A DNA stretch of 55,637 bases, taken from contig JAPLVK010000023.1 of the NCBI GenBank assembly GCA_026397175.1, positions 1 to 55,637 on the forward strand, in the 5' to 3' direction. This document shows, piece by piece, positions 1 to 46,045 of the stretch; position 1 is the first letter of the stretch; the number at the start of each line of letters is the position of its first letter. A program made the position numbers and the translations under genes. The DNA is from Candidatus Berkelbacteria bacterium. Its GTDB lineage: Bacteria; Patescibacteriota; UBA1384; DTJR01. Below the pieces are notes generated by a model. It did no database searches. It was given only the letters and a program-made list of their open reading frames with translations, and was not told the origin of the DNA.

Positions 1-306
1 CAAGAAAATCCCGAAAGGATTCGGGATTTTATAAAAAAGATTGGTTCGAACTTCCGCATTGCCGACCGCACTTTGGTTTTGGATTTCAAAAATGCCTTTA
101 AAATTGCGGAAAAATACCAGGCCGAGGCGCGAAGCGCCGAGGCAACATCTTTCAATTTCGCTGAATGTAAAACTTGGCGGAGAGGGTGGGATTCGAACCC
201 ACGGATCCCTTGCGAGATCAACACATTAGCAGTGTGCTGCTATCGACCACTCAGCCACCTCTCCACTGGATACCTAATTTTCAAAAAATACACGTATCGA
301 GCGTAG
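1..306 (+). CDS. 3'-partial ORF entering from the left edge, product unknown. The frame stays open antisense across tRNA-Ser.
   Basis: Frame 1 is open from nt 1 to the TAG at 304-306. The first ~55 codons (QENPERIRDFIKKIGSNFRIADRTLVLDFKNAFKIAEKYQ...) look protein-like. The tail is simply the complement of the tRNA. Confidence 0.3.
   Translation, partial: QENPERIRDFIKKIGSNFRIADRTLVLDFKNAFKIAEKYQAEARSAEATSFNFAECKTWRRGWDSNPRIPCEINTLAVCCYRPLSHLSTGYLIFKKYTYRA
175..264 (-). tRNA. tRNA-Ser (anticodon GCU), class II with long variable arm, CCA encoded
   Basis: The reverse complement folds as GGAGAGG/CCTCTCC acceptor, GCTG-AGTGGTCGA-TAGC D arm, GCACA-CTGCTAA-TGTGT anticodon arm, a GATC...GATC variable arm, GTGGG-TTCGAAT-CCCAC T arm, then G-CCA. 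Confidence 0.92.
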
Positions 307-408
307 CTCGAATTAGCAGTCGTTTCAAGTTCCGCCCTTGAAACCTATCGACCACTCAGCCCAAGGCTGATCGGCCTAGGGCCGAAGCCACTCTCGCACT
401 CTTCCACA
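283..408 (-). ncRNA. Structured leader or sRNA upstream of tRNA-Ser containing tRNA-Ser-derived fragments (pseudo-tRNA)
   Basis: 17-nt identity to the tRNA D arm (345-361 vs 240-256) and 9-nt identity to the anticodon loop (312-320 vs 225-233). Three hairpins. TCGAGC-GTA-GCTCGA (297-311) followed by a T-run on the minus strand. Confidence 0.4.
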
Positions 409-414
409 GGAGTA

Positions 415-442
415 ATTATAACAAAATACTCAAAAAACTCAA
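415..442 (-). promoter_or_regulatory. sigma70-like promoter, TTGAGT-16 nt-TATAAT
   Basis: Minus-strand -35 at 442-437 and -10 at 420-415. It fires toward the pseudo-tRNA leader and tRNA-Ser. Confidence 0.55.
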
Positions 443-480
443 CCAATTGTCTTTGGGCAAAGTCCTATCTCTAACCAGCT

Positions 481-513
481 AAGCTCCCCGACGGATATAC
501 CGCCGGGGAGCTT
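481..513 (-). terminator. Hairpin after the amidohydrolase stop (weak T-tract)
   Basis: AAGCTCCCCG-13 nt-CGGGGAGCTT, 27 nt downstream of the stop at 540. Confidence 0.35.
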
Positions 514-539
514 GGAAGTTAGGACAAGGGGGGTCGTGA

Positions 540-1574
540 TCAGATGGCGGCAAAGACGCGTTGGTCTTCGGCGAGAGAACGGCGAGCGAACTCCCGATCA
601 ATGTTGTTGAGTTCTTCGCCGTGAGCGATCTTGTTCCAGATGTCCTCCTCGTAGAACCGAGTATCGTTGTAGACGCGCTCGAGTTCTCGGGCCAGGTCCA
701 CCCGCCGAGGGAGAGGGACGAAGATGTCTTCGATGTTGTCGGTGCCGAGGCGTAAAGGAACGCCGGCGACGATCAACTCGCGGACTCGGGCAATCGAGTT
801 GTGGGTCGGCGCACTGATCGGTCGTAGTTGGCGCATTGAGATGGCGGCGTGTGGGCAAACGATCACCCCGATTTTGTACTTGACAAGGTTCTCGACGAGG
901 CGACTGAATCTTGTCTCGTCGTACGCTGACGGTGAGATGACATGGACTGCCCAGACGGTCGGACCGCTGATCCCTTCGATCTTTGGTGCACCGAGCCAGC
1001 GCACCGCATCGATCAGCGTTTCGGTGCCACACTCCTGCGGATCGTTGGCCTGATCCACATGGATTTGCATCGGCAGGTGGTTTTCGTGGGCGATCTTAAA
1101 GAGCAGCTGGAGATGGCCGTCGAATCCGACAGTGTGTTCCGGCGCGCAGTCGCGTTCGGGCAATCCGACGAGAAACTGCGCCCGCTTAGCCGCTTCGCAA
1201 ATGAGCTCGTAGCGATCGGATCCGACTGTCTTGAACCCGAAGATCGGATAAGCGCCAACCTTCAGATCAAGTTCCGGGGCGAGTTCGGCTCGAAGCTTGA
1301 GCGCGGCGTCGAAAGCGACCAAGCCGATATCCGGCGAGGTGTCGGTGCAGGCCCAGACCTCTTTCTCGCCCGTGATCTTCTCTTCCAGAATTCCCTGCAT
1401 TCTCGCGTAGAGTTCGTCGGGCTTATACGCTGGCCCATTGTGGAGATCGCCGACGGCCTGCTGCTTGAGCGCGAGGGATGACTCCCTCACCTCTCTGACG
1501 GAACGCCCGGTGTGTTTCCAACACCCATCATCAGCGGTCCGTGCTCGATCCAAATGCACATGAGCGTCAATCAT
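540..1574 (-). CDS. Cytosine-deaminase-family (CodA-like) metal-dependent amidohydrolase, GC-rich island gene
   Basis: Motifs MIDAHVHLD (HxH), IHVDQANDPQ and GTDNIEDIFVPLP parallel CodA motifs. AGGAGG lies 8 nt before the ATG at 1574; the upstream TTG of the ORF track was rejected. Confidence 0.7.
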   Translation of the reverse strand: MIDAHVHLDRARTADDGCWKHTGRSVREVRESSLALKQQAVGDLHNGPAYKPDELYARMQGILEEKITGEKEVWACTDTSPDIGLVAFDAALKLRAELAPELDLKVGAYPIFGFKTVGSDRYELICEAAKRAQFLVGLPERDCAPEHTVGFDGHLQLLFKIAHENHLPMQIHVDQANDPQECGTETLIDAVRWLGAPKIEGISGPTVWAVHVISPSAYDETRFSRLVENLVKYKIGVIVCPHAAISMRQLRPISAPTHNSIARVRELIVAGVPLRLGTDNIEDIFVPLPRRVDLARELERVYNDTRFYEEDIWNKIAHGEELNNIDREFARRSLAEDQRVFAAI

Positions 1575-1610
1575 TTTGACTTTCCTCCTGTCCCTGGATT
1601 TCAAGGTACA

Positions 1611-1680
1611 AAAAAAATAACCCTGACGCCTAAATCATAGAACCGCTCCTTTCATTTGGCTTGGCGTGTGGTTATTTTTT
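1611..1680 (-). terminator. Long hairpin plus T8 after rplS
   Basis: On the minus strand, AAAAAATAACCACACGCC ... GGCGTCAGGGTTATTTTTTTT. Confidence 0.55.
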
Positions 1681-2873: not shown

Positions 2874-2902
2874 TTGACATTTTTCTCCAAATGCGCTATG
2901 TT
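2874..2902 (+). promoter_or_regulatory. Promoter of the GC-rich three-gene operon, TTGACA-17 nt-TATGTT
   Basis: Read directly from the sequence. Divergent from the rpmA promoter. Confidence 0.6.
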
Positions 2903-2955
2903 TTTGGGATCGTAAGATCTTTGAAAACTAGGAACAGAAAAAGGAGACAAAACAG

Positions 2956-3636
2956 ATGTTTAGTTATCCCGATGAAGTCGCAGCTTGTATGGAGAAAATA
3001 TGGGATCCTATCAAGCGGCTGATTGAATGGTTTGAAGTCATCAAAGGGGCGTCTCCAGTAACATTAACAAGACAGGGCATTTCGGCGGTTTACGCCGAAG
3101 TGCTGTTGGCGGGGATCGAGTTGGGTGAACTTAGGAAGTTGGTCGAAAAACTTCAGCCGGTTCCTGTTCCTCCGATCAGCGACGGAGTTCTTCGACTTGC
3201 CGAACAGATATGGGAGGACTTGGGGGAGGAAAAGAGGAAGCAATTTCTCGACAGTTTGGTGGACCCGATTTTTGCGGGGCAGAAAGTTGGCGAAGTATCG
3301 CCAATAGACGAACTCCTGCGTGATTCAGCCGAGCTGTTTTTTTCTACCCCATGCATCGGAGCACGCGGCGGCGAAAACCTGTTGATAGGTCTTCGAGTCA
3401 GGCAAGATATCAAGTTGCCGGACAGTTTCGAAGACTTCAAGGCGGAGTCAATAATGCGTCAAATTCGGGATACGAAAGTTAGAATCGGCACTATTCCGAC
3501 TGATCAGCTTGAGTTTGGCGACTATCATGGTTGTACTACGGCCGCCCTCAAAGGGGAGAACGGATCGCCGACCGAAGTACCTAGCGACATTGCGGTCCAA
3601 GAAGCCCAGGACGAAATCGCCCAACGCGGCGGATAG
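2956..3636 (+). CDS. Hypothetical protein (GC-rich island, gene 1 of 3)
   Basis: 226-aa ORF. AAGGAG lies 9 nt upstream of the ATG. No motif recognised. Confidence 0.7.
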   Translation: MFSYPDEVAACMEKIWDPIKRLIEWFEVIKGASPVTLTRQGISAVYAEVLLAGIELGELRKLVEKLQPVPVPPISDGVLRLAEQIWEDLGEEKRKQFLDSLVDPIFAGQKVGEVSPIDELLRDSAELFFSTPCIGARGGENLLIGLRVRQDIKLPDSFEDFKAESIMRQIRDTKVRIGTIPTDQLEFGDYHGCTTAALKGENGSPTEVPSDIAVQEAQDEIAQRGG

Positions 3637-3690
3637 TCCGCCTTATCAACTCGCAAACAAAAAACGGCAAAGCCAAGAAAAAGGTGAAAG

Positions 3691-4188
3691 ATGAACGAGA
3701 ATCTGCCGAAAGCATCGCCGATGGCCAACCAAGCCATTGGGGAACTTATAGCGGCAACGGTCCATGCGACCGTTTGCTCGATTCTAGAGAAAAACGGCAT
3801 GGCACCATGCTCTGTGGGTAGGCCTCATGTAAAGCTTGACGAAGAGTCCGTCATGAGTATGCTGGGTTGGGATGTTTTCTTCTATCATCCAGACAAACCC
3901 ACTAGAAGTATCAATATCATCTTCTATGTGCCAAAGAGTCCGTATTATTCTGAAGCGAAGCGGCGGGTAGAAGAACTGCTGTCTATGGTTCACGAAGGCG
4001 GATTCGTGTATCTCGATCTGCCCGAATGTATCTGCTTCAAACGACTCGAACGGTTCGGGGTTGATCTGGTTTACCACCAGAGCGAGGAAGCTGAAGTCAA
4101 AGAAGAAATCCTCCAACTCTTCGGCTGCTGCGGTGGCGCTTGCCATGAGGCAGAGGACACCGAACCACGCCGAAGCCGGACATGGTAG
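3691..4188 (+). CDS. Hypothetical protein (gene 2 of 3), Cys-rich C-terminus LFGCCGGACHE
   Basis: 165-aa ORF with a GGTGA SD. Same strand and composition as its neighbours. Confidence 0.65.
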   Translation: MNENLPKASPMANQAIGELIAATVHATVCSILEKNGMAPCSVGRPHVKLDEESVMSMLGWDVFFYHPDKPTRSINIIFYVPKSPYYSEAKRRVEELLSMVHEGGFVYLDLPECICFKRLERFGVDLVYHQSEEAEVKEEILQLFGCCGGACHEAEDTEPRRSRTW

Positions 4189-4245
4189 GACGCCTCGGCT
4201 AATCCGCCGAGCAATCAATAAACGGCAAAAGGAGAGAAACACACC

Positions 4246-4815
4246 ATGTGTGAAGTTGTGATTTCGAAAGCGCTTCGGGAACGCGCGATGGGCAAGATAG
4301 AGGATCCCGATCAAGTAAAGTCGGAGTTGATCGAGAATGTCTTGGAGGAACTAGTCCAACCCGAGGGACTAGATCTAAGGCGCTCGCAGGACGCGCGGCT
4401 AGGGGAGTATCTGCAGCAAAACTGCGATCTCGAGCTCTTTTATTTCGAGAGAGACGGTTGTCTGCGCGCTCGCTTAATGCCGAAAGCCCTAACTGAAGAT
4501 CTTGAGACGGTTTTGGGGCTTGATGTTGATACAGAGGAAGGTACGGCTAAAGTCATAAAAGTCCTCGAAGACCAAAACCGTACCCCCGCCAATCTCGCCG
4601 GAGTTGGCTTTGTGATTGATACCAGCCAATCCCCGCCGGTGGCCATGACACTGATGGAGGGAGTAGTGCTGGCCGATGCTAATTTCTTGAGCTTTGGGGA
4701 GTTTGTCAAGGCCATTTGTAGCGAGCTCAAGATTGAGCCGCCGGATCTAGCGCCTCTCTTTGAGTGTCTGAGTCAGCTGAAGCAGAAAATCAAAGAGGGA
4801 GCATCCGGTAGCTAG
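4246..4815 (+). CDS. Hypothetical acidic protein (gene 3 of 3)
   Basis: 189-aa ORF. AAGGAGAG lies 9 nt upstream of the ATG. Confidence 0.65.
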   Translation: MCEVVISKALRERAMGKIEDPDQVKSELIENVLEELVQPEGLDLRRSQDARLGEYLQQNCDLELFYFERDGCLRARLMPKALTEDLETVLGLDVDTEEGTAKVIKVLEDQNRTPANLAGVGFVIDTSQSPPVAMTLMEGVVLADANFLSFGEFVKAICSELKIEPPDLAPLFECLSQLKQKIKEGASGS

Positions 4816-4832
4816 GTAGACAACAAACAACA

Positions 4833-4886
4833 GGGCCACCCGTAGTCCCGCCATAGGCGCGGACGAAGGGTGGCCCTTTTTCTTTT
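4833..4886 (+). terminator. Intrinsic terminator of the three-gene operon
   Basis: GGGCCACCC (4833-4841) / GGGTGGCCC (4868-4876), followed by TTTTTCTTTT. Confidence 0.75.
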
Positions 4887-4916
4887 GGAAAAAAATGGTA
4901 AAAATAAGATGGTTGA

Positions 4917-5044
4917 ATAATGAATTACGAATAACGAATTACGAATGGGTTTGAAAATTAAAAATTGCAAAATTGAATGCCCGGAGGGCGAACCCGCATC
5001 CTGCGGGTGAGAAAATTGCAAAATTGAAAATTGTAAAATTATAA
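4917..5044. repeat. Composite AT-rich repeat: a family A arm, then family D arms (gaaaattg words) around a GC-rich hairpin core
   Basis: aatgaattacgaataacgaattacgaatggg, then gaaaattaaaaattgcaaaattgaa-[ACCCGCA-TCC-TGCGGGT]-gaaaattgcaaaattgaaaattgtaaaatt. Ends 1 nt before the dnaE ATG. Confidence 0.75.
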
Positions 5045-5045
5045 T

Positions 5046-8000
5046 ATGAATTTCACCCATCTCCACCTCCACACCCACTATTCTCTCCTTGACGGGCTAG
5101 GGAAACCCGAGGAGTTTATTTTAAGTGCCAAAGAAATGGGCATGAACTCGCTAGCTATCACCGATCACGGCGCCATGTACGGCGCAATCGAGTTTTACAA
5201 GGCAGCTAAAGCGGCGCAGATTAAACCGATTATCGGCGTAGAGGTCTATGTCGCGCCCCGATCATTAACTGACAAAATTTCAAAACTTGATTCTAGCCCG
5301 TACCACTTGATTTTGCTCGCTAAAAATCTTGAGGGTTATCAAAATTTGATGAAGCTAACCAGCATCGCTCATCTTGAGGGATTTTATTATAAGCCGCGCG
5401 TTGATAAAAAAATCCTTAAAAAATATTCAAACGGACTAATCGCATCTTCCGCTTGTCTTGCGGGGGAAATTCCACGCGCGCTTTTATCAAACGACGAGGA
5501 GATGGCGCAAAAAGCGCTTCTCGAATACCAAGAAATATTTGGCAAAGACAATTTCTATTTGGAGCTTCAAGATCATCCCGACATTAAAGATCAACAAATC
5601 GCCAACGAAGCCATCAAAAAATTGGCCCAAAAAACCCAAACGCCGCTCGTTGTAAGCTGTGATTCCCATTATGTAAAAAAAGAAGACCGTGAGGCGCATG
5701 ATGTTTTGGTCTGTGTGCAAACCGGCAAAACGGTTGATGATCCAAAAAGAATGACTTATGACGGCGATTTTTCGCTTCGCGACCCCAAAGAGCTGGCGGA
5801 GGTCTTTAAGGATGTTCCCGAAGCGCTAGAAAACACGCAAAAAATCGCCGATCAATGCAATCTCGAAATTAAATTTGGCGAAAACCTATTGCCCGATTTC
5901 CCGATTCCTTCAAAAAAATCGCCGGACGAATTTTTAAAAGACATTTGTCTGGTTGGTCTCAAAGAAAGATATCCCAAAGCAGACGAGAAAGAACAAAAAC
6001 AGTTGCTTGAGCGGCTTAATTACGAACTTTCGGTTATTAAAAAAATGGGTTTTGCCGATTACTTTTTGATTGTGGCCGATTATGTAAAATGGGCCAAAGA
6101 AAACGCAATTATGGTCGGTCCGGGCAGGGGCTCGGCCGCCGGTGCATTGGTTACATATTTGGCCTACATCACGGATGTTGATCCGATTCGCTACGGGCTG
6201 CTGTTTGAGAGATTCCTAAATCCCGATCGAATTGAAATGCCTGATATTGATCTTGATTTTGCCGATCATCGGCGCGCGCAGGTTTTACAATATGTTTCAA
6301 ATAAATATGGCGCAGATAAAGTGGCCGGCATTATTACTTTTGGAACAATGGCTGCGCGCGCCGCCATTCGCGACACCGGCCGCGCGCTGGGGATTTTGTA
6401 TGCGCAAGTAGATGCTATCGCCAAAATTGTCCCGCCGCCCCTGCAGGGCAAACACATTCCGCTATCAAAATCGATCGCAGAAAATAACGAGCTCAAAGAT
6501 GTTTATAAGCGCGATCCGCAAGCCAAGCGACTCTTGGATATGGCGACAAAGCTCGAAGGAACGGTGCGCCACGCCAGCCAGCACGCCAGCGCTTTCGTCA
6601 TAACTCGCGACGAGCTGCCTTGTTATGTGCCGCTCCAGAGCGCGCAAAAAGAAGGTGTTAGCCAAATCACCCAATATTCGATGTATCCGGTGGCCGAGCT
6701 CGGACTTTTAAAAATGGACTTTTTGGGACTTTCAAACCTGACCACGATCGAGCGAGCGCTTGAAATCATCGAAGCCGTCAATGGTGATAAAATTGATATT
6801 TTTAATCTTCCGCTTGATGACAAAAAATCATTTGCACTTTTAGGAAAAGCACAAACAGTCGGCGTGTTTCAATTTGAATCAAGCGGAATGCAACGCTACA
6901 TCAAGGAACTCAAACCGACTTCGATTGACGATATTGCCGTCATGGTGGCGCTTTATCGGCCCGGCCCGATGCAGTTTATTGATTCATTTATTGCGCGAAA
7001 AAATGGTCGGGAAAAAATTACATTTCCGCACGAGATGACAAAATCCGCGCTCGAGGTAACTTACGGCATTCCGGTTTATCAGGAGCAGGTGATGCAGATT
7101 TCAAAAGATATGGCCAATTTTACCGGCGGCGAGGCGGACAAACTTCGCAAAGCGATGGGCAAAAAAATCGCCAAATTGATGGCGGAAATGAAAGTTAAAT
7201 TTATTTCTGGCGCCGAAAAAAACGGTGTTTCGACCAAACAGGCCAACGAGGTTTTCGCCATGCTCGAGGATTTCGCCGCCTATGGCTTTAATAAGTCGCA
7301 CGCCGTTTGCTACGCCATGATTGCTTATCAAACCGCATATCTTAAGGCCAATTATCCCGAGTGTTTTATGGCCGCTTTGATGACCTCGGATTTAAACGAC
7401 ATTGACCGCATTGCTATTGAAATTGAGGAATGCGAGCGGATGAAAATTGATGTCTTGCCGCCCGATGTTAACGAGTCGTTTGTAGATTTTGGTGTGGTCA
7501 AGGAGTCGGGAAATATTCGCTTTGGACTGGGCGCGATCAAGGGGATTGGTGAAAATCCGGCCAGAATTATCGTCAAGGAAAGAAAGAAAAATGGGCCGTT
7601 TAAATCACTCGAGGATTTTGTGGATCGGATGATAAATTGCGAGGTGGACGGGGTCGGGGAGCGCATGATTTTAAATAAGAAGATCCTGGAGTCGCTGGCC
7701 AAATCAGGCGCGCTTGATAATTTTGCCGAGCGCGCGCAAATTTTAGCCGGCATGGAAATTATCACCAAGCGAATTCAAGACGCCTCAAAAGCCAAAAAAA
7801 CGGCGCAAATCGGGCTTTTTGGCGAAGTGCTGGCGGCCGATATTGAAATCGGGGGACTTGATTTGCCGCAAGTTGAACCGGCCACACAAGCGCAACGGCT
7901 CGCCTTCGAAAAAGAACATCTTGGCATTTATATTTCGGAGCATCCTTTGCGCGAAGTGGGCGAGATGCTAAAGCAGGCGGTTTCCCATCAAATCGGGGCG

Positions 8001-8636: not shown

Positions 8637-8642
8637 AAGCAG

Positions 8643-8716
8643 CGAATTACGAATAACGAATTATGAATTATGAATGGGAATTCATTCTTAATTCGTAATT
8701 CATGATTCATAATTCG
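8643..8716. repeat. Family A AT-rich imperfect palindrome (gaattaYgaat / attcRtaattc words)
   Basis: Left arm cgaattacgaataacgaattatgaattatgaatggg pairs with right arm aattcattcttaattcgtaattcatgattcataattcg. A 33-nt stretch is identical to 38677-38709. Confidence 0.85.
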
Positions 8717-38674: not shown

Positions 38675-38752
38675 CCGAATTACGAATAACGAATTATGAA
38701 TTATGAATTAATACTTATCCATTCATCATTCAAAATTCATAATTCAAGATTC
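38675..38752. repeat. Family A AT-rich palindrome
   Basis: cgaattacgaataacgaattatgaattatgaatt ... attcatcattcaaaattcataattcaagattc. Confidence 0.85.
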
Positions 38753-38816
38753 TATCTTCAATGAGGGCTTGATGGCCCCGCTTTTTAGGGCGGGGCCATG
38801 TGTGGTTGGGGAGCGG

Positions 38817-39212
38817 CTAAGGCAGGTGCTGTTTGCACCAATCGTGGGCCGCTCGGATGACATCGTACCAAGGAGAGTCGTGTGGTACTTCGTAGGCGAT
38901 ACCACCATCGAAGTAGAAGAGGCGGCGATCGCCGTGGAGTATGAGCTCGGCGGTTTTGTTGACGATCACACTCTCGAGCAACTCGCGAATCGTGATCGTC
39001 TTCGGTTCGGCGTGAGGGAGGGTGATGCTGGGGCCTCGCTTTGCGTTTATACCCAGAAGCACGCAAAGGTCGAGCGGGAAGATCTCGCAATGCGGCGCGC
39101 GTCCCAGGGTTTTCTCGAGTCCCTTTTCCCCGCCAAACTCGCCTTTGAGCCACTCGCCAAGCTGCCTCGCCGTTGAAATTACCGGCTTCGTCTTGATCTG
39201 ATCGAGGGCCAT
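38817..39212 (-). CDS. Hypothetical protein (single-gene GC-rich island)
   Basis: 131 aa. AAAGGAGGG lies 7 nt before the ATG. Has its own consensus promoter. Confidence 0.7.
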   Translation of the reverse strand: MALDQIKTKPVISTARQLGEWLKGEFGGEKGLEKTLGRAPHCEIFPLDLCVLLGINAKRGPSITLPHAEPKTITIRELLESVIVNKTAELILHGDRRLFYFDGGIAYEVPHDSPWYDVIRAAHDWCKQHLP

Positions 39213-39254
39213 TTCGCACCCTCCTTTCTTAAGATGTCAAACAAAACTATCGTC

Positions 39255-39283
39255 ATTGTAGGGTCTTATTTTCAGCTTGTCAA
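39255..39283 (-). promoter_or_regulatory. Promoter TTGACA-17 nt-TACAAT
   Basis: Minus-strand -35 at 39283-39278 and -10 at 39260-39255. Confidence 0.65.
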
Positions 39284-39357
39284 ATTTTATTTTCTGGCCA
39301 TCGTTTTGTTCTTATGATTCCATTTTGCTAATCTTGTGCGGGTATCGTGCTATGATT

Positions 39358-39436
39358 GTGAATTATGAATCTTGAATTACGAATTATGATTTATTTGATT
39401 TTATTCATAATTCATTATTCGTAATTCATAATTCGA
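39358..39436. repeat. Family A AT-rich palindrome
   Basis: gtgaattatgaatcttgaattacgaattatgat ... attcataattcattattcgtaattcataattcg. Confidence 0.85.
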
Positions 39437-39451
39437 TGCTATGATTAAATC

Positions 39452-39988
39452 ATGCTCTTTCTAATTTTTCTCGATTTTATCTGGTCTGTCTCGGCTTTTA
39501 TCTACGATTGGTCGAAATTTGCCACAATTCCGTGGTTTGTTCTGCCGTTTGTTGTTATTTGCCCGATTTATCCTTTGCTTTTGGCAATCGTGTGGATTAA
39601 AATTTTCAAGAAAAAAAATCCAAATCAATATCTGTTTACCTTCGCCACAATTCCAAGCATGATTTTTGGGTTGTTGGCCCTGATTTATTATCCGGTTGCG
39701 ATGTTTTATCAGGGATTTTCTTTAAATGCCTTTGGCCAGATTTTTTGGGTTTTGTTTTATTCTATCCAGGCCTGGTATCTTTTTTTCAAATATAAAACAT
39801 CAACCCTGCCGATTATTTTAGTGCTTTTTTATCTTTCGATTAAATTTTTTATTGATTATAAATATCTGACCTTCGGCTATCTTGATTTTTCAAATATTCC
39901 GCGAGTTCTAATTTTATATTTTACGATTATCGCTGTATCGGTTGCTTTTTGTCTTGGTACTCTTGCAATTTTTAGGAGAAAAAGCTAG
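39452..39988 (+). CDS. Polytopic membrane protein (DUF1405-like)
   Basis: 178 aa with about 5 TM segments. The family assignment is from memory of the motif pattern only. Confidence 0.65.
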   Translation: MLFLIFLDFIWSVSAFIYDWSKFATIPWFVLPFVVICPIYPLLLAIVWIKIFKKKNPNQYLFTFATIPSMIFGLLALIYYPVAMFYQGFSLNAFGQIFWVLFYSIQAWYLFFKYKTSTLPIILVLFYLSIKFFIDYKYLTFGYLDFSNIPRVLILYFTIIAVSVAFCLGTLAIFRRKS

Positions 39989-40031
39989 AATTCGATCAGT
40001 ATTGTACATTATGTTCAGGAGATGATGCCTC

Positions 40032-40388
40032 GTGGCACTAAAACTGTCTTTCGAAGAACTCTGCAAGATGGGTCTTGTGGGGCGCAAAGTCGTGTGCCGG
40101 ATTGGGCGACGGGAGTATCGCTTCTGGGTAGGCGATCAAAGGGTTTCGAAACGGGTAGGGCTCGTGCTAGAGTGCGACCCGAGGCGGAAAACACCCGAGG
40201 CAGACCGCCGGGTTGGCAAAAGACGGTTTCGGCTGCTAGAGCCGCACAAGCGTCACGGCGCCTTCTTTGTCCATGGCGACTTCGTGATTGAGCGTCGGGG
40301 CAATCTGATTGTCTGCGTTCCTCCTGCGAGGAAGAGGGGGAGCCGGAAGAAGGCACGCCATGTCGTCGTCATCGTCCTTCGGGATTAG
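40032..40388 (+). CDS. Small basic hypothetical protein (GC-rich island)
   Basis: GTG start 10 nt after AGGAG. It is the only protein-like frame. Followed by the terminator at 40412-40464. Confidence 0.45.
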   Translation: MALKLSFEELCKMGLVGRKVVCRIGRREYRFWVGDQRVSKRVGLVLECDPRRKTPEADRRVGKRRFRLLEPHKRHGAFFVHGDFVIERRGNLIVCVPPARKRGSRKKARHVVVIVLRD

Positions 40389-40411
40389 TCCGGGGGACAT
40401 CTCTTTCATAG

Positions 40412-40464
40412 GCCGCGTTTCCAAGCTCACACATTGTGAAATTGGGACGCGGCTCTTTCTTTTT
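40412..40464 (+). terminator. Intrinsic terminator
   Basis: GCCGCGT-28 nt-ACGCGGC, followed by TCTTTCTTTTT. Confidence 0.55.
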
Positions 40465-40470
40465 AAAAAT

Positions 40471-40848
40471 TTAGTTTTGCTCGCTAACGCGTGGTGCCAA
40501 GCGGATGATTACCTTAAACTTTCGCTGCTCGCCGTTAGCATCTTTGATTTCGTCGGTCTGATTTTTGGCATAATATTCCATCAACTCTACGGACAAAATT
40601 TCTCTTAAAGTATTTATTTCGTCTAAATTTGCTTTGATGTCCTCGACTAATTTCTGATTGCCCTCTTCGGACAAAAGTTCATCTTTGAGCCGTTTTTTTC
40701 TTTTGTTCAGCTCTTTGGATTGCTGCGCAACTTTTTGATATTCCAAATCGTTCTCCAAAACCGACTTAATCATTTCTTTTGATTTGCGGTTTTCTTCTTC
40801 TAAGTCCTCGACAATTTTAATTCTTTCTCTAACCACCGATAAATCCAT
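40471..40848 (-). CDS. Coiled-coil hypothetical protein
   Basis: 125 aa, Lys/Glu-rich with a heptad-like pattern. Confidence 0.6.
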   Translation of the reverse strand: MDLSVVRERIKIVEDLEEENRKSKEMIKSVLENDLEYQKVAQQSKELNKRKKRLKDELLSEEGNQKLVEDIKANLDEINTLREILSVELMEYYAKNQTDEIKDANGEQRKFKVIIRLAPRVSEQN

Positions 40849-40940
40849 AAGACCTCCGTTTAATAAATCTAAAATTATAAATTCTAAGGCAGGAAAATTA
40901 TATCAATAAATTTATGCAAAAGAAAAAAAGAGATTTTTCT

Positions 40941-40983
40941 AATAATTGCCAAATTGTTCAATTGCCTAATTGTTTAATTAATG
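40941..40983. repeat. Family C AT-rich word repeat
   Basis: aataattgccaaattgttcaattgcctaattgtttaattaatg. Confidence 0.75.
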
Positions 40984-40986
40984 ATA

Positions 40987-41014
40987 TTGACTTCTTCTGT
41001 TATTCTGCTACACT
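40987..41014 (+). promoter_or_regulatory. Promoter TTGACT-16 nt-TACACT
   Basis: Read directly from the sequence. Confidence 0.55.
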
Positions 41015-41071
41015 CAAGGGCCAAGAATTGAAGGAAAATTCTTGAGAACATTTCTAGAAAGGGCAAAAACG

Positions 41072-41437
41072 ATGCCCAAGGTACTGATTGTCGAGGATCA
41101 TGACGAGGTTGCCAGGACGGTTGGGGTGGTTATCGAGGGATTCAACGGGTGGTCGGTCGAGCGGGAAATTGATGTCGCGAAAGCGATTGAGCGGCTCCGC
41201 TCGGGCGAGTTCGACTGCGTTCTTGCCAACATGGGGAAGAGAAACCCCATGAACGGCAACGCCGCGACCATCCTGAAGGCGCAAACCGGCGTCCCGGTGA
41301 TCGTAATCACGGGCGGACTCCGGAAGAGCTTGGATGCGCTCGCCCCGCTTAAACCGGCCGTTATTTTGCAGAAGCCCTTCGACAAGAGCACGCTTTTCCT
41401 CGCTCTGGTGGCGGCCTGCCCCGCCGACAAGCTGTAG
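41072..41437 (+). CDS. Stand-alone receiver-domain protein lacking the phospho-acceptor Asp (pseudo-receiver)
   Basis: KVLIVEDHD, then CVLANMG where CheY has vISDwnMP (Asn in place of Asp57), then VIVITGG and ILQKPF. Confidence 0.7.
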   Translation: MPKVLIVEDHDEVARTVGVVIEGFNGWSVEREIDVAKAIERLRSGEFDCVLANMGKRNPMNGNAATILKAQTGVPVIVITGGLRKSLDALAPLKPAVILQKPFDKSTLFLALVAACPADKL

Positions 41438-41461
41438 CTCGACTGCTCCCGTCCCAAATCT

Positions 41462-41503
41462 AAGGCACTTTGGAGACCTCAATCCAAAGTGCCTTTTGCT
41501 TTT
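41462..41503 (+). terminator. Strong intrinsic terminator
   Basis: AAGGCACTTTGGA-8 nt-TCCAAAGTGCCTT, followed by TTGCTTTT. Confidence 0.8.
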
Positions 41504-41514
41504 AATTTAGCAAC

Positions 41515-42060
41515 TTAGACCTTGTAAAAATAAACTTTTGTAATTCTTTTGCAATTTTGCAAGGGTTTTGAAAGATACGGTTTATGGTTTTTAAATTGAA
41601 ACCCGAGAGAACAAATAATCGTCCCTGGCCTTGCCGCAGAAAAAACCATTGGCTCAATTTCTCTTAAAATCTTATCAAAAAGATAGAGATAGATAATATC
41701 GGCCTTTTTGATCTCATTTTTCGCTTTTCTAGCATCGCCAAAATAAATCTTTACATTTTTGGTATGGCCAGAAAATAAAACATTTAACTTGGATTTAAGA
41801 TAGGCGAAAGGGGAGACCTCGAACCCAATCCCTTGTGCGCCATAATTTTTAGCGGCAATTATCAAACTTCTGGCATCCCCGCATCCTAAATCCAAAACAA
41901 TTTGTTCTTTTTTAATTTTGGCCAACTTAAATATCTCGCCGATCAATCTCGAGTCAGCATAAACGGCCGGCGCGCCGCAGGCCAACGCAATTATGCCGGA
42001 AATACTCCAAACAAAAACAAAAAGAGCGAGTAACAAAAAGGAGACATCTAAATAGATCAT
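41515..42060 (-). CDS. Class I SAM-dependent methyltransferase with an N-terminal TM segment
   Basis: VLDLGCGDARSLIIAA...GIGFEVSP (motif I / post-I). Confidence 0.75.
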   Translation of the reverse strand: MIYLDVSFLLLALFVFVWSISGIIALACGAPAVYADSRLIGEIFKLAKIKKEQIVLDLGCGDARSLIIAAKNYGAQGIGFEVSPFAYLKSKLNVLFSGHTKNVKIYFGDARKAKNEIKKADIIYLYLFDKILREIEPMVFSAARPGTIICSLGFQFKNHKPYLSKPLQNCKRITKVYFYKV

Positions 42061-42668
42061 TCTTGGGAGCGTGGACTTGAACTTGAATCGTGATCCTGAT
42101 AGTCATGCGGCAAATTGAGTGCCGTTTCTTCTTTATCTTCTTTGACTAACTTAATAACTTTTTCGATCAATGTTTTAGGATCATCGTCATAAACTATTTT
42201 TGGATTTGGCCGATTGCATTCGGCGACGATTTCCTTAATTTCATCAGCGATCCCGCCTGTTCCCGTTAAAATCCCGATCGGTTTGTGATCCTCAAAAGCG
42301 ATTGTAAATTCGTTGAGAGTTCCGATCCGCCCGCAGACGGTGATAATAGCATCGGAGCTTCGTGTCAAAAGAAGATTTCGGCCCGAATAGCCAAAACCGG
42401 TATAAGTAATAATGTCAAATTGGTCAATCGGCAGCTTATATTTTTTGACATGTTCTAGCTCGGTGGCGGCGGGCGATATACCGATCGAGAAGCCCTTTTC
42501 TTTCTTACACCCTACCGCTGCCCAGTAGGGTACGCCGATTGTGGCGCCCGTTACAACGACGCCGTTTTGACGCACGATTTCACGGCCTAATTCTTCGGTT
42601 TTTTCTTTGGCGTCCGGCGCGCAATCACCGGTTTCTGCTGCCCCCGAAACACAAATCTTATACTTCAT
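42057..42668 (-). CDS. LOG/TIGR00725-like Rossmann-fold protein
   Basis: KICVSGAA...VVVTGATIGVP...AIITVCGRIGTLNEF. ATG at 42668 with an AAAGG SD. Confidence 0.65.
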   Translation of the reverse strand: MKYKICVSGAAETGDCAPDAKEKTEELGREIVRQNGVVVTGATIGVPYWAAVGCKKEKGFSIGISPAATELEHVKKYKLPIDQFDIITYTGFGYSGRNLLLTRSSDAIITVCGRIGTLNEFTIAFEDHKPIGILTGTGGIADEIKEIVAECNRPNPKIVYDDDPKTLIEKVIKLVKEDKEETALNLPHDYQDHDSSSSPRSQE

Positions 42669-42742
42669 GATTGCCTTTCTATAAAATTTACTTTGTATTT
42701 TAAATTTGGTAATTGTCTTTGAATCTTGTGTCAACAAACAGT

Positions 42743-42822
42743 GAATTACGAATTTAGAATTACGAATTATGAATGGACTTCAATATTTTAATTATCATTC
42801 TTAATTCTTAATTCATGATTCG
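42743..42822. repeat. Family A AT-rich palindrome
   Basis: gaattacgaatttagaattacgaattatgaatgg ... attcttaattcttaattcatgattcg. Confidence 0.8.
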
Positions 42823-42833
42823 GTTTTCAGAAA

Positions 42834-44192
42834 CTATATCTCCACCTCTTCCCCTTCTTTCGGAATCACCGTTTCTACTCCTTGTTCATCTTTTATCATA
42901 CTCGATAAAACCCGTTTTGATTTATCCTCACCGTGGACAATAAAACATTTTTTGACGCCTTGAATTTTAGAAAGCCAGTATTTTAGCTTCGGCTGATCGG
43001 CGTGAGCGGAATAAGCATCAATAATTTCGACTCTTGCCGCCACCGGCACTTGCTCGCCTTTAATTCTAACCGAGTGTGTCCCATCTTTTAGCATCCGTCC
43101 CATTGTTCCGGTAACTTGATAACCGATAATCAATAGCACCGTGCTAGAAACCGGCAAAAATCTTCTTTCGTGAAAAACGATTCGTCCGCCGTTTGACATT
43201 CCGGAGCCGGCGATGATGATTTTAGACGAAGCATCTTGATCGAGCTGACGCGATTCGTTTGCATCGGGAGTAAATTTTAATCCGGGAAAATTGAAAAGAT
43301 CATCCCCGCTTTTGATCTGACTTTCCGCCTCCGTGTCAAAGTCCTCGGGAAATTTTTTATAAATCTCGGTCGCTTTTATCGCTAAAGGCGAGTCAATAAA
43401 AACCGGAATTTGCGGAATTTTTTTACTTTCAAAAAGTGAGTTGAGCTCGTACAAAATTTCCTGCGTTCTCTCGAGCGCAAAAGACGGCATCAACAAGACC
43501 CCGTTTTGTTTGACGACATCTTCGATAATTTGCGCAAGGCGGATTTTGCGCTGATCTGACGGCTCGTGGATTCGGTCGCCGTAGGTTGATTCCATCACAA
43601 CGAAATCGGCTTTTTCGATAAAATCCGTGTCGCGCAAAACGGGAACCGGCGGATTGCCCAGATCGCCGGAGAAAATAATCGTTTTGCCCTCAGCTTCGAT
43701 TTCGATAATTGCAGAGCCCAAAATATGCCCGGCGTCGTAAAACTTTATCTCGATGCCCTCGGCCGGCTGAAACACTTCATAATAATCGTGTGGCTCAAAC
43801 AAATTGACGGCAGATAAAACATCACTTTGCTCAAACAACGGCTCTTGGCCCAAATCATCAGCCGTGTTTTTCATCAACTTGCAGGTGTCTTCTAAAAAAA
43901 TCTGCGCAAAACCGGCCGTCGGCTTGGTCGAGTAGATCTTGCCGTGAAAGTCCTGTTTGCACAAAAGTGGAAAGCGGCCGATATGATCAATGTGCGAATG
44001 AGTGGCGATTGCAAAATCAATTTCTTGGGGATTATACGGCAGCTTGTTCCAGTTTTTAATTTCCGTTTCGCGAGGGCCCTGAAACAGCCCGCAATCAACC
44101 ACAAATTTAACCGTTTTTCCAGCCGAGTTTACCTCGACCAAAAAATTCGATCCTGTTACTTCCTCCGTCGCGCCGCAAAAAGAAATACGCAT
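42834..44192 (-). CDS. MBL-fold beta-CASP RNA-metabolising hydrolase
   Basis: THSHIDHIGRFP (HxHxDH), ...AGHILGSA..., ESTYGDR and AYSAHADQ. Confidence 0.8.
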   Translation of the reverse strand: MRISFCGATEEVTGSNFLVEVNSAGKTVKFVVDCGLFQGPRETEIKNWNKLPYNPQEIDFAIATHSHIDHIGRFPLLCKQDFHGKIYSTKPTAGFAQIFLEDTCKLMKNTADDLGQEPLFEQSDVLSAVNLFEPHDYYEVFQPAEGIEIKFYDAGHILGSAIIEIEAEGKTIIFSGDLGNPPVPVLRDTDFIEKADFVVMESTYGDRIHEPSDQRKIRLAQIIEDVVKQNGVLLMPSFALERTQEILYELNSLFESKKIPQIPVFIDSPLAIKATEIYKKFPEDFDTEAESQIKSGDDLFNFPGLKFTPDANESRQLDQDASSKIIIAGSGMSNGGRIVFHERRFLPVSSTVLLIIGYQVTGTMGRMLKDGTHSVRIKGEQVPVAARVEIIDAYSAHADQPKLKYWLSKIQGVKKCFIVHGEDKSKRVLSSMIKDEQGVETVIPKEGEEVEI

Positions 44193-44240
44193 TAAATGCT
44201 CCTTAAATACTTATCAATATTTATCAATTTTCAATATTTA

Positions 44241-44621
44241 TCATTTAATTTTAGAATTTTCATTTAAAGAGGTTACGATTTTTTGAAAAATTAGATTTAA
44301 TTCGTGCGCCTCTTGCCATAGTATATCAACTTTTTCTATGTTTACTGTTGATTTAATTACTTTCAGCCAATATTTAGTTTCCTGACTCTCTTTTTTGCAG
44401 ATATAAATCTTGTTTCTAAAGTCCTTTTTGGAACAGGAATTGTTTGCTTCTACATAATTTGCACCAATACTCGAAGCAGATCGAATAAGCTGTATAAGCA
44501 TTGGGTAAAGCATCCTATCTTTCTCGTATAATTTACAAAAAACTAACACATTTTTAGAAAAATTAATCGTTCTTTCTTCTAGATCGAAAGTTTTTTTCAT
44601 TTTGTTTGATAATTGATTCAT
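44241..44621 (-). CDS. Four-helix-bundle protein (23S rRNA intervening-sequence protein / Avd-like family)
   Basis: FDLEERTINFSKNV...LIRSASSIGANYVEANN..SKKDF.NK..ICKKESQETKYWL. Confidence 0.75.
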   Translation of the reverse strand: MNQLSNKMKKTFDLEERTINFSKNVLVFCKLYEKDRMLYPMLIQLIRSASSIGANYVEANNSCSKKDFRNKIYICKKESQETKYWLKVIKSTVNIEKVDILWQEAHELNLIFQKIVTSLNENSKIK

Positions 44622-44672
44622 TGAAAATTAAATGGAAATTGAACTTTGAAAATTGATAAGTATTGCACTGTC

Positions 44673-45416
44673 TTATTCCTTACTTCCCGCCTTATCTTTC
44701 AGCTCTTCTTCTACTATTCCAATAATCCGAAGAGCTGAACTCGTCCCGAGCCGCGTGGCTCCTGCCTCGATCATCGCCTTGGCTTGATCGAATGTATGAA
44801 TTCCGCCTGACGCTTTTACGCCGAGCTCCGAGCCAACCGCTTCGCGCATAATTTTGATGTCTTCCGGGGTTGGAACGCGTGGGCCATATCCAGTTGATGA
44901 CTTCACAAACGCCGCGCCGGCCGATTTAGCCCGTTTACACGATTCGATCAATTCTTCTTTGGTTAAAAACCCGATTTCCATAATCACTTTTAGTTTAACC
45001 GGCGCGATCGCCTCGACAATTTGGTGAATCTCCTCTTGTACAAATTCAAAATTTCCTTCTTTGACGGCGCCGATATTTTGGACCATATCAATTTCGGTTG
45101 CGCCGTCTTTAATCGCGGTTTTACCTTCGTTAATTTTCTCTTGCGTCGTCGTAAACCCAAACGGAAATCCAATGACACAGATGATAGCTGGTTTTTTGTT
45201 GTCGTCCCGATCTCCGTTATTGTCATCTCGAGCTTGTCGAGAGATCTCCCCCAGTTCCTCCGCAGCAATTTTGACCCGATACGGCGTAACGCAAACGGAG
45301 TGAAACTTATATTTTATCGCCTCTTGGCAGAGTTCTTTAATATCTTCTTCGGTCGCATCCGCTTTGACATTGGTGTGATCAATATATTTACAAATACTAG
45401 TTCGCGATATCTCCAT
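44673..45416 (-). CDS. deoC: Deoxyribose-phosphate aldolase
   Basis: IDHTNVKADAT, VCVIGFPFG, ATEIDMV, FVKSSTGY (Schiff-base Lys region) and VKASGGI. ATG at 45416 with a GAGG SD. Confidence 0.85.
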   Translation of the reverse strand: MEISRTSICKYIDHTNVKADATEEDIKELCQEAIKYKFHSVCVTPYRVKIAAEELGEISRQARDDNNGDRDDNKKPAIICVIGFPFGFTTTQEKINEGKTAIKDGATEIDMVQNIGAVKEGNFEFVQEEIHQIVEAIAPVKLKVIMEIGFLTKEELIESCKRAKSAGAAFVKSSTGYGPRVPTPEDIKIMREAVGSELGVKASGGIHTFDQAKAMIEAGATRLGTSSALRIIGIVEEELKDKAGSKE

Positions 45417-45484
45417 TTTTGACCTCACAAATTAAGTTTTTTACTCTTCTTAATCTTATCTCGTGTCCGGTTGTTGTCAAACAT

Positions 45485-45525
45485 TTTTTATCAAATCAAA
45501 ACGGCTCCGCCGAGGCGGAGCCGTT
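45485..45525 (-). terminator. Intrinsic terminator
   Basis: AACGGCTCCG...CGGAGCCGTT, followed by TTGATTTGAT on the minus strand. Confidence 0.65.
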
Positions 45526-45550
45526 GAGCTGACCCAAAAAGTTGGGGAGT

Positions 45551-45970
45551 TCACCGGATCTCGACGCGGTAGGCATCGGACCAGGAGAGCTCGATGGTTT
45601 CGCCGTTCCAGCAGGAAACGAGCGAGACCAGAACGAAGAGCCAGGCCTTGCCCGGCTTGAGGGGGCGAACAACTGACCCATCAACCAGTAAGACGGACGG
45701 GTCGGAAGAGGCGAGAGTGATCTGGGCGGCGGCCGGAGTGGCGCGGTCTTTGAAGCAACCGCCGCGCAGTTCCTTCCACTGAATGACGGGATGAATCGCG
45801 ATCGAAGTTCTTGCGAGCGCGACACCGCCCACGATTCTCGCGCCTTCGAGGCGCGAATACGGGAAGTCGGCCGAGATGCACGAGCTATTATAGCTCGTGC
45901 GCTGCATCTCGGCTGATGCGAGAGAAAGTGATACGACGATGAGTGTGATGACAACAATTACCCTAAACAT
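45551..45970 (-). CDS. Small secreted protein with a possible Big_2-like Ig domain (GC-rich island)
   Basis: ATG at 45970 after GAGGTG. MFRVIVVITLIVVSLSLASA signal peptide. ITLASSDPSVLLVDGSVVRPLKPGKAWLFV. Confidence 0.65.
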   Translation of the reverse strand: MFRVIVVITLIVVSLSLASAEMQRTSYNSSCISADFPYSRLEGARIVGGVALARTSIAIHPVIQWKELRGGCFKDRATPAAAQITLASSDPSVLLVDGSVVRPLKPGKAWLFVLVSLVSCWNGETIELSWSDAYRVEIR

Positions 45971-46017
45971 GTGTGTCGCACCTCGCGTGTTTTTTTCTGT
46001 CAACGATCTAGCCCGAA

Positions 46018-46045
46018 ATGATACTCTAAAATAGCAAAAAGTCAA
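46018..46045 (-). promoter_or_regulatory. Promoter TTGACT-16 nt-TATCAT
   Basis: Minus-strand -35 at 46045-46040 and -10 at 46023-46018. Confidence 0.55.

Follow-up and report, generated by a model that had tools for sequence, protein, structure and literature searches.

In the pangenomes of marine bacteria, flexible genomic islands hold a variable content at fixed positions between core genes, and GC-rich structural RNA genes, among them those of rRNA, tRNA and the large noncoding RNAs OLE, GOLLD and ROOL, occur in AT-rich genomes. In phages, morons are defined by a promoter and a terminator of their own together with a deviant GC content (PMC3594210). In the Patescibacteria, or candidate phyla radiation (CPR), genomic islands and transferred genes account for up to 13% of the genome, most of the transfers are exchanges among Patescibacteria themselves, and what was gained includes genes of nucleotide metabolism (PMC12455944); horizontal gene transfer (HGT) and genomic islands are thus already documented in this group and the basic phenomenon is not new. 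Here we analyze contig JAPLVK010000023.1 of a Candidatus Berkelbacteria genome, along which eleven GC-rich blocks, labelled I1 to I11 in window order, are found. The window is the whole 55.6-kb contig (C24) of a 1.01-Mb, 27-contig genome with an overall GC content of 41.6% and an estimated completeness of 93%. We hold it to be rather probable that the blocks belong to an accessory compartment of a Berkelbacteria-like CPR chromosome, built from autonomous, moron-like units that sit in slots between core genes and whose contents turn over.

With the morons of HK97 and HK022 (Juhala and Hendrix; PMC3594210) the blocks have in common that they are single genes or short units between collinear genes, with a predicted promoter and factor-independent terminator of their own, and that their products are accessory or of unknown function. 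They differ in being carried by the backbone of a cellular chromosome, next to L19, L27, DnaE, ClpB, DnaX, DnaB, LepA and RNase J, and not by a phage or prophage, and in being GC-richer than their context. Moreover, I8 and I5 are old and vertically inherited, two blocks contain no open reading frame (ORF), and the slots of relatives are occupied by other small GC-elevated units, so that there are no clean additions. The genomic islands and islets of Patescibacteria resemble the blocks in their atypical composition, in a share of about 10% of the genome, in their accessory, metabolic gap-filling or unknown genes and in exchange mostly within CPR (PMC12455944). About a tenth of a tiny genome kept as compact moron-like units in fixed slots would indicate how accessory genes are accommodated in a streamlined genome of the symbiont type.

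GC-rich blocks in the window

Judged by its marker sequences, the genome is a Berkelbacteria-like member of the Patescibacteria. Its small-subunit (SSU) rRNA is bacterial and carries an insertion, the nearest named relatives of its DnaE (69–70% identity) are metagenome-assembled genomes (MAGs) labelled Candidatus Berkelbacteria, candidate division WS2 and 'uncultured Saccharibacteria', and the top named match of the I1 amidohydrolase is also from Berkelbacteria. An archaeal origin, suggested by an archaeal-type S-adenosylmethionine (SAM) synthetase (MAT) and a CofE-like ligase, was ruled out by the bacterial SSU rRNA. A greedy ORF map of the window reveals an ordinary chromosomal backbone with L19, L27, DnaE, ClpB, an HU-like protein, AroE, DnaX, an intein-bearing DnaB, a MurJ-like protein, LepA, an RNase J/beta-CASP protein and DeoC.

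An earlier note on this DNA had listed eleven sharply GC-richer blocks, most of them with expression signals of their own and with mostly orphan or accessory products. All eleven were recovered where it had placed them, both in a sliding-window profile and by an objective segmentation. The GC content of the units is 0.54–0.60 in nine blocks and 0.49–0.51 in I2 and I5, against 0.32–0.48 in the flanks, taken as 400 bp on each side of the unit. In the first half of the window lie I1 (540–1574, GC 0.587, flanks 0.48/0.41), I2 (2956–4815, GC 0.512, flanks 0.37/0.45), I3 (8765–9616, GC 0.579, flanks 0.37/0.41), I4 (16718–17285, GC 0.540, flanks 0.43/0.47) and I5 (20412–23334, GC 0.490, flanks 0.35/0.36). 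They are followed by I6 (28079–28861, GC 0.567, flanks 0.40/0.33), I7 (36655–36791, GC 0.547, flanks 0.42/0.42), I8 (38817–39212, GC 0.578, flanks 0.42/0.33), I9 (40032–40388, GC 0.588, flanks 0.35/0.32), I10 (41072–41437, GC 0.601, flanks 0.34/0.40) and I11 (45551–45970, GC 0.590, flanks 0.44/0.42). I2 and I5 are only mildly raised (0.49–0.52), and segments within DnaE, ClpB, DnaB and RNase J that the earlier note had not listed reach 0.50–0.52.

Across 400-bp windows of the whole genome the standard deviation of GC is 0.059, compared with about 0.025 from binomial sampling, so that the heterogeneity lies far above sampling noise. The GC content at third codon positions (GC3) of the genes is distributed around a main mode near 0.38, with a shoulder set apart at 0.57–0.66. 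With islands defined by a minimum length of 300 bp and a minimum GC of 54%, 148 were counted genome-wide, making up 10.7% of the genome. The blocks of the window are of mixed type, comprising seven compact protein units, two ORF-free, hairpin-dense units (I3 and I4), one three-gene operon (I5) and I7; no similarity was detected between islands, which are therefore not copies of one element.

Slots between conserved genes

Two sets of relatives were compared: five genomes of the same family, whose DnaE is 69–76% identical, and a JGI contig (L023) that is collinear with 29.7–45.4 kb of the window and whose backbone proteins are 60–75% identical to those encoded there. On the latter the gene order is DnaX-DnaB-MurJ-x-LepA-[ ]-178TM-[ ]-LDcluster4-RNaseJ-DeoC-[ ], where brackets stand for slots. 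I8, I9, I10 and I11 are absent from it; its slots instead hold unrelated small genes with a GC3 of 0.52–0.56, against 0.35–0.40 in its backbone. Within the family, the arrangement L19-L27-[slot A]-DnaE is kept in five of five genomes, and DnaE-[slot B]-153aa-HU in all four whose contig passes DnaE. In every one of the five, slot A contains 0.85–2 kb of GC-rich ORFs (GC 0.50–0.62) with a coding signature and the orientation of I2. Slot B, in each of the four, contains 0.5–1 kb of ORF-free sequence with long GC hairpins, as in I3, and is GC-rich within the same range of 0.50–0.62. No similarity of these slot contents to I2, I3 or I4, or to each other, was found by blastn, tblastx, blastp or a decoy-controlled profile search; I2 and I3 share with the relatives only slot position and GC-rich content, homology being undetected. 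Family-wide, slot positions and GC-richness are thus conserved and the sequences are not. An N-terminal motif of the slot-A proteins, seen by eye, was lost in the profile search with decoys, where the I2 proteins were not retrieved above the decoys.

Variable content at fixed positions between core genes is what the blocks share with flexible genomic islands. The synteny comparison proposed in the earlier note has a divided outcome: I8 to I11 are absent from L023, the slots are variable and presence/absence differences with conserved flanks do occur, yet I8 is kept in a close relative and I5 in a family genome (G006), in both cases in synteny and with host-like divergence. Compared with genomic islands in general, the units are very small (0.4–2 kb) and usually consist of one gene, and their GC content outlasts their arrival, so that composition does not date them. 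Hallmarks of integration are missing as well, since no integrase or flanking direct repeats lie beside any of the eleven and I1 is the sole island that adjoins a tRNA gene (tRNA-Ser).

The organization that we propose is one in which blocks would fill a limited number of slots among collinear, AT-richer core genes (L19-L27-[ ]-DnaE-[ ]-153aa-HU; LepA-[ ]-178TM-[ ]-LDcluster4-RNaseJ-DeoC-[ ]; and others). Their contents would turn over partly by lateral exchange in the CPR gene pool and partly by very fast divergence, probably with recombination in or near the conserved flanks, and slot positions and GC-richness would persist family-wide. The best surviving alternative requires no transfer: the blocks would be native, lineage-specific genes and RNAs that have always been in these slots and evolve fast. 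A force acting locally, GC-biased gene conversion at recombination-prone spacers or else selection for transcripts that are stable and structured, would maintain their GC content. We regard this alternative as possible but rather doubtful. In its favor, slots A and B are GC-rich in every relative that covers them, with similar ORF size and orientation in A and ORF-free hairpins in B; against it, the failure of the slot-A profile to retrieve the I2 proteins leaves orthology unproven, and the slot genes of L023 differ in size.

The slot between DnaE and the 153aa gene holds more than blocks. In the window, a 6.7-kb block 646aa-ClpB-839aa on the minus strand (9784–16511, GC 0.43–0.45) parts I3 from I4 within slot B. 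It was not found in the stretches fetched around dnaE of the five family relatives, and in the four that cover the slot its length is just 0.8–1.9 kb, which suggests that the slot is also a site of rearrangement. A clear presence/absence polymorphism of an island was observed in a metagenomic pair from a sister lineage with backbones 85–96% identical at the amino acid level: a GC-rich insert between PPDK and enolase (L008:3553–6040 vs. L005:5080–6290) contains a 537-aa ORF (GC 0.54) and a FabA-like gene (GC 0.51).

Promoters and terminators

Promoters and terminators were scored by consensus scans, and the signals quoted here and below for individual units are predicted from such matches. The statement that most blocks possess a sigma-70-like promoter, a Shine-Dalgarno (SD) sequence and a terminator of their own is borne out at this level, with promoter matches of 12/12 for I4, 11/12 for I6, I8 and an internal promoter of I3, 10/12 for I1, I2 and I11, and 9/12 for I9 and I10, the last with an extended –10 (TG). 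Islands account for four of the window's six top-scoring promoter matches; its strongest terminators end I3, I6, I10 and I11, and weaker ones are found at I2, I9 and I8. Genome-wide, 13 of 71 near-consensus promoters are aimed into an island border, against 5% in the weak-match background (p = 5e-5). In I8, the stretch from the –35 to the ATG is nearly invariant with respect to a close relative in spite of synonymous sites near saturation, which argues, indirectly, that the signals are functional. Searching JGI metagenomes for exact matches to the 5' untranslated region of I8 gave none.

A gene, short operon or ORF-free hairpin unit framed by a sigma-70-type promoter, a strong SD and an intrinsic terminator would be transcribed autonomously, and would thereby be expressible wherever it is inserted while leaving its neighbours undisturbed. 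For expression studies, the units also offer orphan proteins as well as candidate structured RNAs, with strong predicted native promoters.

Age of the GC excess

The GC content of three blocks can be followed through relatives. The single homologue of I8 (73% identity) occupies the same position on a short contig of a close relative, whose LepA and 178TM protein are 94.7% and 83% identical. Synonymous divergence (dS) is 0.69 for I8 and 0.98 for LepA, and the ratio of nonsynonymous divergence (dN) to dS is 0.26 and 0.04, respectively, the dN of I8 being about 5-fold above that of LepA; together with the synteny, these values identify I8 as a gene under selection whose divergence has kept pace with that of the backbone. 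Its GC3 is nevertheless 0.71/0.66 in the two relatives, vs. 0.43/0.42 for LepA, and a two-state argument suggests that an unconstrained GC3 excess would have roughly halved over this distance. I5 is syntenic in G006 in the order HD, HprK-like (51% identity), MAT remnant, GT; the segment has a GC of 0.49–0.53 between flanks of 0.30–0.39, and the neighbouring HD protein is also 51% identical. In the clade of I1, GC3 remains near 0.64–0.70 down to 57% identity. The I5-type operon of G006 has itself decayed (L092, i.e. G006:C3, about 7700–9200 of the fetched stretch; L004:1501–2031): the HprK-like gene is intact, of the SAM synthetase only the C-terminal 190 residues or so are left, and CofE was not detected.

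The oligonucleotide signature was compared by correlating Markov-corrected tetranucleotide z-scores. Coefficients are 0.87 between islands, 0.85 between backbone sets, 0.76–0.79 between islands and backbone, 0.71–0.74 between islands and CPR relatives and 0.36–0.41 between any set and E. coli, the islands alone giving 0.37–0.41. Base composition thus deviates from that of the genome in GC and GC3, and the tetranucleotide signature resembles that of the backbone and is not foreign to the host. The persistence of GC in I1, I5 and I8 and the CPR-like signature speak against a recent arrival from a distant GC-rich partner or host. As far as these alignments reach, GC-richness is old and stable in this class of genes and carries no time-stamp of recent import. 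That an atypical GC content here does not by itself signify a recent or foreign origin calls for caution in composition-based HGT calls and in the decontamination of MAGs in CPR.

Several of these results also fit purely vertical descent. I8 is syntenic and co-diverged, and with a dN rate about 5-fold that of LepA it would no longer be recognizable as homologous at family distance; I5 is in synteny and has diverged as much as its neighbour; and the island signature is close to that of the backbone. For bacteria, GC3 has been documented to be linked with recombination (PMC4450053). What vertical descent accommodates poorly is the patchy distribution of I1, its five loci and its discordant divergence, as well as the patchiness of PurH and other GC-rich metabolic genes, which are without close relatives in the family (see next section).

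In the reading that we prefer, an accessory compartment with turnover of its contents, the GC content of the units may be kept by recombination-linked GC-biased conversion, by exchange within a GC-rich mobile pool or by selection for stable RNA. A stronger form, somewhat more doubtful than vertical descent, would divide CPR genomes of this family into two compositionally stable compartments, an AT-drifting conserved core and fixed hypervariable slots that are actively kept GC-rich, the GC being made locally and not inherited from a donor. Possible routes are GC-biased conversion at recombination hot spots that also drive the turnover, or selection for nuclease-resistant, strongly expressed transcripts. 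If true, this would amount to an isochore-like organization in an ultra-small bacterial genome, and composition-based detection of HGT would systematically misdate or misassign CPR genes.

Lateral exchange of I1; GC-rich genes elsewhere in the genome

The gene of I1 is present in 15 of 401 genomes of the phylum and in none of the seven of the family. Its close clade (57–75% identity) occurs in six other contexts that represent four further loci, thus five loci in all, and its GC is 0.56–0.60 in all seven hosts, 0.12–0.17 above the flanks; members of the I1 family at 45% identity or less in other CPR genomes have the GC content of their own genome. Two relatives with backbones 85–96% identical carry syntenic copies that are just 69.5% identical, and a copy 74% identical to I1 lies at another locus in those relatives, whose RecA, enolase and DnaG are 69%, 45% and 38% identical. 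This divergence is discordant with that of the backbone and implies exchange or replacement. None of the closest homologues of I1 that were examined lies on a uniformly GC-rich donor contig; all five are in AT-rich, CPR-type contexts, and on these contexts I1 appears to have been laterally exchanged within CPR. Such a discordance is observed for I1 only, I8 and I5 having diverged like their neighbours.

GC-rich genes outside the window encode PurH, GuaA, PurL-like and PurM-like proteins, PyrF, a PlsY-dehydrogenase fusion and TrpRS (contigs C2, C3, C20 and C21; examples at C2:13513–15120, C3:7690–9324, C3:119127–122003, C20:116745–117491 and C3:67562–68560). These functions in nucleotide biosynthesis and translation are unusual or patchy in CPR. 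PurH, for instance, is absent from the family and present in 62 of the 401 genomes of the phylum, with a best identity of 41%. The GC-rich nucleotide genes here agree with the published gains by HGT in Patescibacteria (PMC12455944).

A number of observations weigh against an accessory compartment with turnover. Lateral transfer is demonstrated only in the case of I1, the descent of I8 is plainly vertical over a dS of about 0.7, and for the orphans I2, I6, I8, I9 and I11 turnover is indistinguishable from fast divergence in situ. In all 19 CPR loci examined PurH is 0.00–0.10 GC-richer than its flanks, and the GC excess of enzyme genes may in part be a generic effect. The promoters and terminators of the islands are pattern matches, and promoter matches of at least 11/12 are seen in about 9% of islands genome-wide, so that the window is an unusually tidy sample. 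Finally, the tetranucleotide comparison has E. coli as its single unrelated control, and the collections hold no whole genome of the same genus.

AT-rich hairpins and block borders

The earlier note had explained the blocks as repeated acquisitions of foreign cassettes, possibly from a GC-richer partner or host, at intergenic repeat sites, or else by an unrecognised capture mechanism; the model considered here takes the acquisitions to be recent and the sites to be the AT-rich palindromes. The sharp GC contrast, the autonomous promoters and terminators and the orphan or accessory products would suit such an origin. The supposed source is not supported by the results above: no GC-rich donor context exists among the closest I1 homologues examined, the signature is CPR-like with r of only about 0.4 to E. 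coli, and the GC content of I8, I5 and I1 has persisted over near-saturated or saturated divergence. As to the sites, the AT-rich hairpins form four families (A to D) of short tandem units (GAATTAY, CAATTG/AATTG, AAAGTTCAT and GAAAATTG), family A being built from four GAATTAY heptads, a loop and four inverted heptads. A census by BLAST with exemplar elements, chosen because a strict hairpin scan and k-mer density were too insensitive or noisy, counted 63 elements genome-wide and 13 on this contig. Those of family A lie at 4915–4946, 8640–8718, 9625–9702, 38675–38760, 39355–39436 and 42738–42830, and those of families B to D at 2770–2818, 4950–5045, 16588–16682, 33814–33930, 36509–36615, 40940–40988 and 46045–46128. 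The promoters of I4 and I10 each have a family B element immediately 5' of their –35, and another lies a short distance 5' of the I11 promoter.

An association of blocks and hairpins is thus partly real. Within 200 bp of an island lie 21 of the 63 hairpins, about twice the 10.5 ± 2.9 expected at random, and I3 and I8 are bracketed on both sides, each by elements of the same family. They are the only two, however; a hairpin is found within 200 bp of just 20 of the 148 islands, and hairpins also occur between ordinary backbone genes. The left and right hairpins were considered as insertion scars and rejected, as those around one island show no greater likeness than those found elsewhere. The close relative retains I8 at its position but has unrelated palindromes instead of the flanking hairpins. 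Since hairpins are exchanged around a conserved block and few islands are flanked at all, we regard them as independent intergenic elements with a fast turnover that occupy spacers in common with the islands, and not as capture sites, and insertion at such repeats is not upheld.

A capture mechanism finds as little in its favor. For eight of ten units, direct or inverted repeats at the flanks did not exceed a shuffle null, no border motif common to the islands was found, and Pfam and NCBIfam scans revealed no recombinase among the island ORFs. The blocks recall integron cassettes in being small, mostly single-gene accessory units of unknown function, serially arranged in one region (I8 to I11). 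They differ in having promoters and terminators of their own, in occurring in both orientations and interleaved with core genes, and in the absence of attC-like shared border repeats and, among the scanned ORFs, of an integron integrase. Taken together, recent foreign cassettes are an improbable explanation of the blocks.

The remaining alternative, chimeric joins or contaminating reads from GC-richer community members, might be raised for a 27-contig MAG in which I1 to I5 and I7 lie outside the independent junction evidence, and it is very improbable given that Logan contigs from six or more runs, belonging to two accession series, are identical to the window across I6 and I8 to I11, that like islands fill the same slots in independently assembled relatives and that the predicted expression signals sit precisely at island edges. 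The Logan contigs are 100% identical and collinear over 26884–33850 and 38679–47037, so that I6 and I8 to I11 are not chimeras; the junctions of I11, for example, are reproduced in contig L014. The junction check suggested in the earlier note is thus answered for these five of the eleven blocks.

ORF-free units and the lepA leader

I3 (8727–9620, plus strand) is an ORF-free, hairpin-dense unit of about 850 nt directly 3' of dnaE. It begins with a promoter-like TTGACT-17-TATTAA at 8727, contains the internal 11/12 promoter at 9455 and ends in a putative terminator at 9585–9611. Its minimum free energy is –391 kcal/mol, compared with –321 ± 7 for shuffled sequences (z = –9.7). I4 (16683–17290, plus strand), an ORF-free unit of about 570 nt, forms the edge of the slot between DnaE and the 153aa gene, on the 153aa side. 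It has a perfect match to a promoter (TTGACA-16-TATAAT) and a GC-stem/T7 terminator, the latter read directly from the sequence; its folding is only modestly stronger than that of shuffles (z = –2.2). The coding signature GC1>GC2<GC3 possessed by the coding islands is absent from I3 and I4 in every frame. I3, and less clearly I4, thus resemble GC-rich structural RNAs, being ORF-free from promoter to terminator, GC-rich, strongly folded and conserved in position across the family. They differ from them in lacking an Rfam match and sequence conservation between relatives, so that support by covariation is lacking. With Rfam 15 at gathering and sensitive thresholds, I3, I4, I7 and the slots of the relatives gave only spurious, miRNA-like matches to AT-rich hairpins, and no BLAST relatives of I4 were found in 150 genomes of the class. 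A motif GGAGGAAAGCC had raised RNase P as a candidate for I4; it was rejected as no RNase P model scored at E≤1 and the motif spacing is wrong.

I7 (36614–36833, plus strand) is of another kind and no cassette. It is a copy of a conserved, structured GC-rich element of about 100 nt (element X) in the leader of lepA, with a nested 39-nt hairpin (Y). The first 13 lepA codons are present twice, in synonymous copies, and the element sits between the two, forming an upstream ORF of 61 codons whose stop overlaps the real GTG start of lepA. The core of element X is CUUACUGYRAAAC-GGAUUACAUCC-UGUUAUYRCAGUG, closed by a CCCCGCAC...GUGCGGGG stem, and compensatory changes are seen in three stems. The element is present in 29 of 162 genomes of the class (including loci L061–L078), with one to five copies each, upstream of start codons or beside tRNA genes. 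Further copies in the same genome lie at C21:15543–15705 and C3:45945–46050; at two of the copies here, those at lepA and at a gene on C21, the first 13 codons of the gene downstream stand, as synonymous versions, on either side of the element. The GC-rich hairpin Y, CCTGCCCGCAGATGCTACGCATCAGGCGTTGCAGGCGGG, is found inside X at 36679–36717 of the window and also at C7:14478–14516, C15:10942–10982 and C20:98339–98386. Its length is a multiple of three, so that the frame of the ORF upstream of lepA is kept.

Protein-coding units

The products are mostly orphan or accessory, as had been claimed: Pfam and NCBIfam scans, clustering and homologue searches give an amidohydrolase, a receiver and orphans, and the protein units are all singletons at 90% identity among about 15 billion proteins. 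I1 (minus strand) encodes a 344-aa amidohydrolase related to cytosine deaminases, according to matches to NCBIfam PRK06886 and to cytosine deaminases and to 750 homologues. It has a GC3 of 0.70 and an AGGAGG SD, and its predicted 10/12 promoter is at 1720–1692. I5 (minus strand) is an operon of a CofE-like ligase (22576–23334), the archaeal-type SAM synthetase (21367–22572) and an HprK-like P-loop protein (20412–21362), matching PF01996, PF01941 and PF07475, with a GC of just 0.475–0.50. I10 (40987–41500, plus strand) encodes a 121-aa stand-alone receiver domain (41072–41437), recognized by Pfam PF00072 and NCBIfam, in which the phospho-acceptor Asp appears, by eye, to be replaced by Asn; its predicted signals are TTGACT-16-TACACT with TG and a terminator at 41462–41495.

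The remaining units encode orphans. I2 (2874–4885, plus strand), in the slot between L27 and DnaE, consists of three small acidic ORFs (2956–3636, 3691–4188 and 4246–4815) behind a putative promoter TTGACA-17-TATGTT at 2874, with strong SDs and a weak terminator-like hairpin at 4865–4879. None of the three has a Pfam or NCBIfam match; the first, I2a, found a single marginal match among 1.84 billion representatives and no relatives in viral contigs. I6 (28025–28865, minus strand) encodes a 188-aa protein (28079–28645) with a hydrophobic segment at its N-terminus, for which no homologues were found in 161 class genomes; the 11/12 promoter match with TG (28861–28833) precedes a leader of some 190 nt that is GC-rich, and a match to a terminator lies at 28055–28029. 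I8 (38762–39285, minus strand), between its family-A hairpins, encodes a soluble protein of 131 aa (38817–39212) with matches to a promoter (TTGACA-17-TACAAT), an AGGAGG SD and a GC-stem terminator. The basic, soluble protein of I9 (39963–40460, plus strand) has 118 aa (40032–40388) with a GTG start and an AGGAG SD, and is a singleton cluster; a terminator-like hairpin lies at 40374–40398, and behind it a second hairpin (about 40412–40455) that was read directly from the sequence. AlphaFold models of I9 and I8 are of low confidence (pLDDT 44 and 49, respectively). I11 (45495–46046, minus strand) encodes a protein of about 139 aa (45551–45970) with a signal-peptide-like N-terminus, between a putative promoter TTGACT-16-TATCAT (46045–46018) and a terminator match (45525–45500).

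Two observations concern the region of DnaB. In the window, DnaB (31186–33813, 866-aa product) contains an intein with a LAGLIDADG domain, and the collinear DnaB of L023 is intein-less (458 aa). The spacer between DnaB and MurJ (33997–34300) contains an 11/12 promoter match with TG (TTGACA-18-TATGAT) and, behind it, a strong SD, AAGAAGGAGGGG, and a stretch of about 300 nt that lacks listed ORFs of at least 70 aa; the region is not GC-rich and may encode a small protein or a small RNA.

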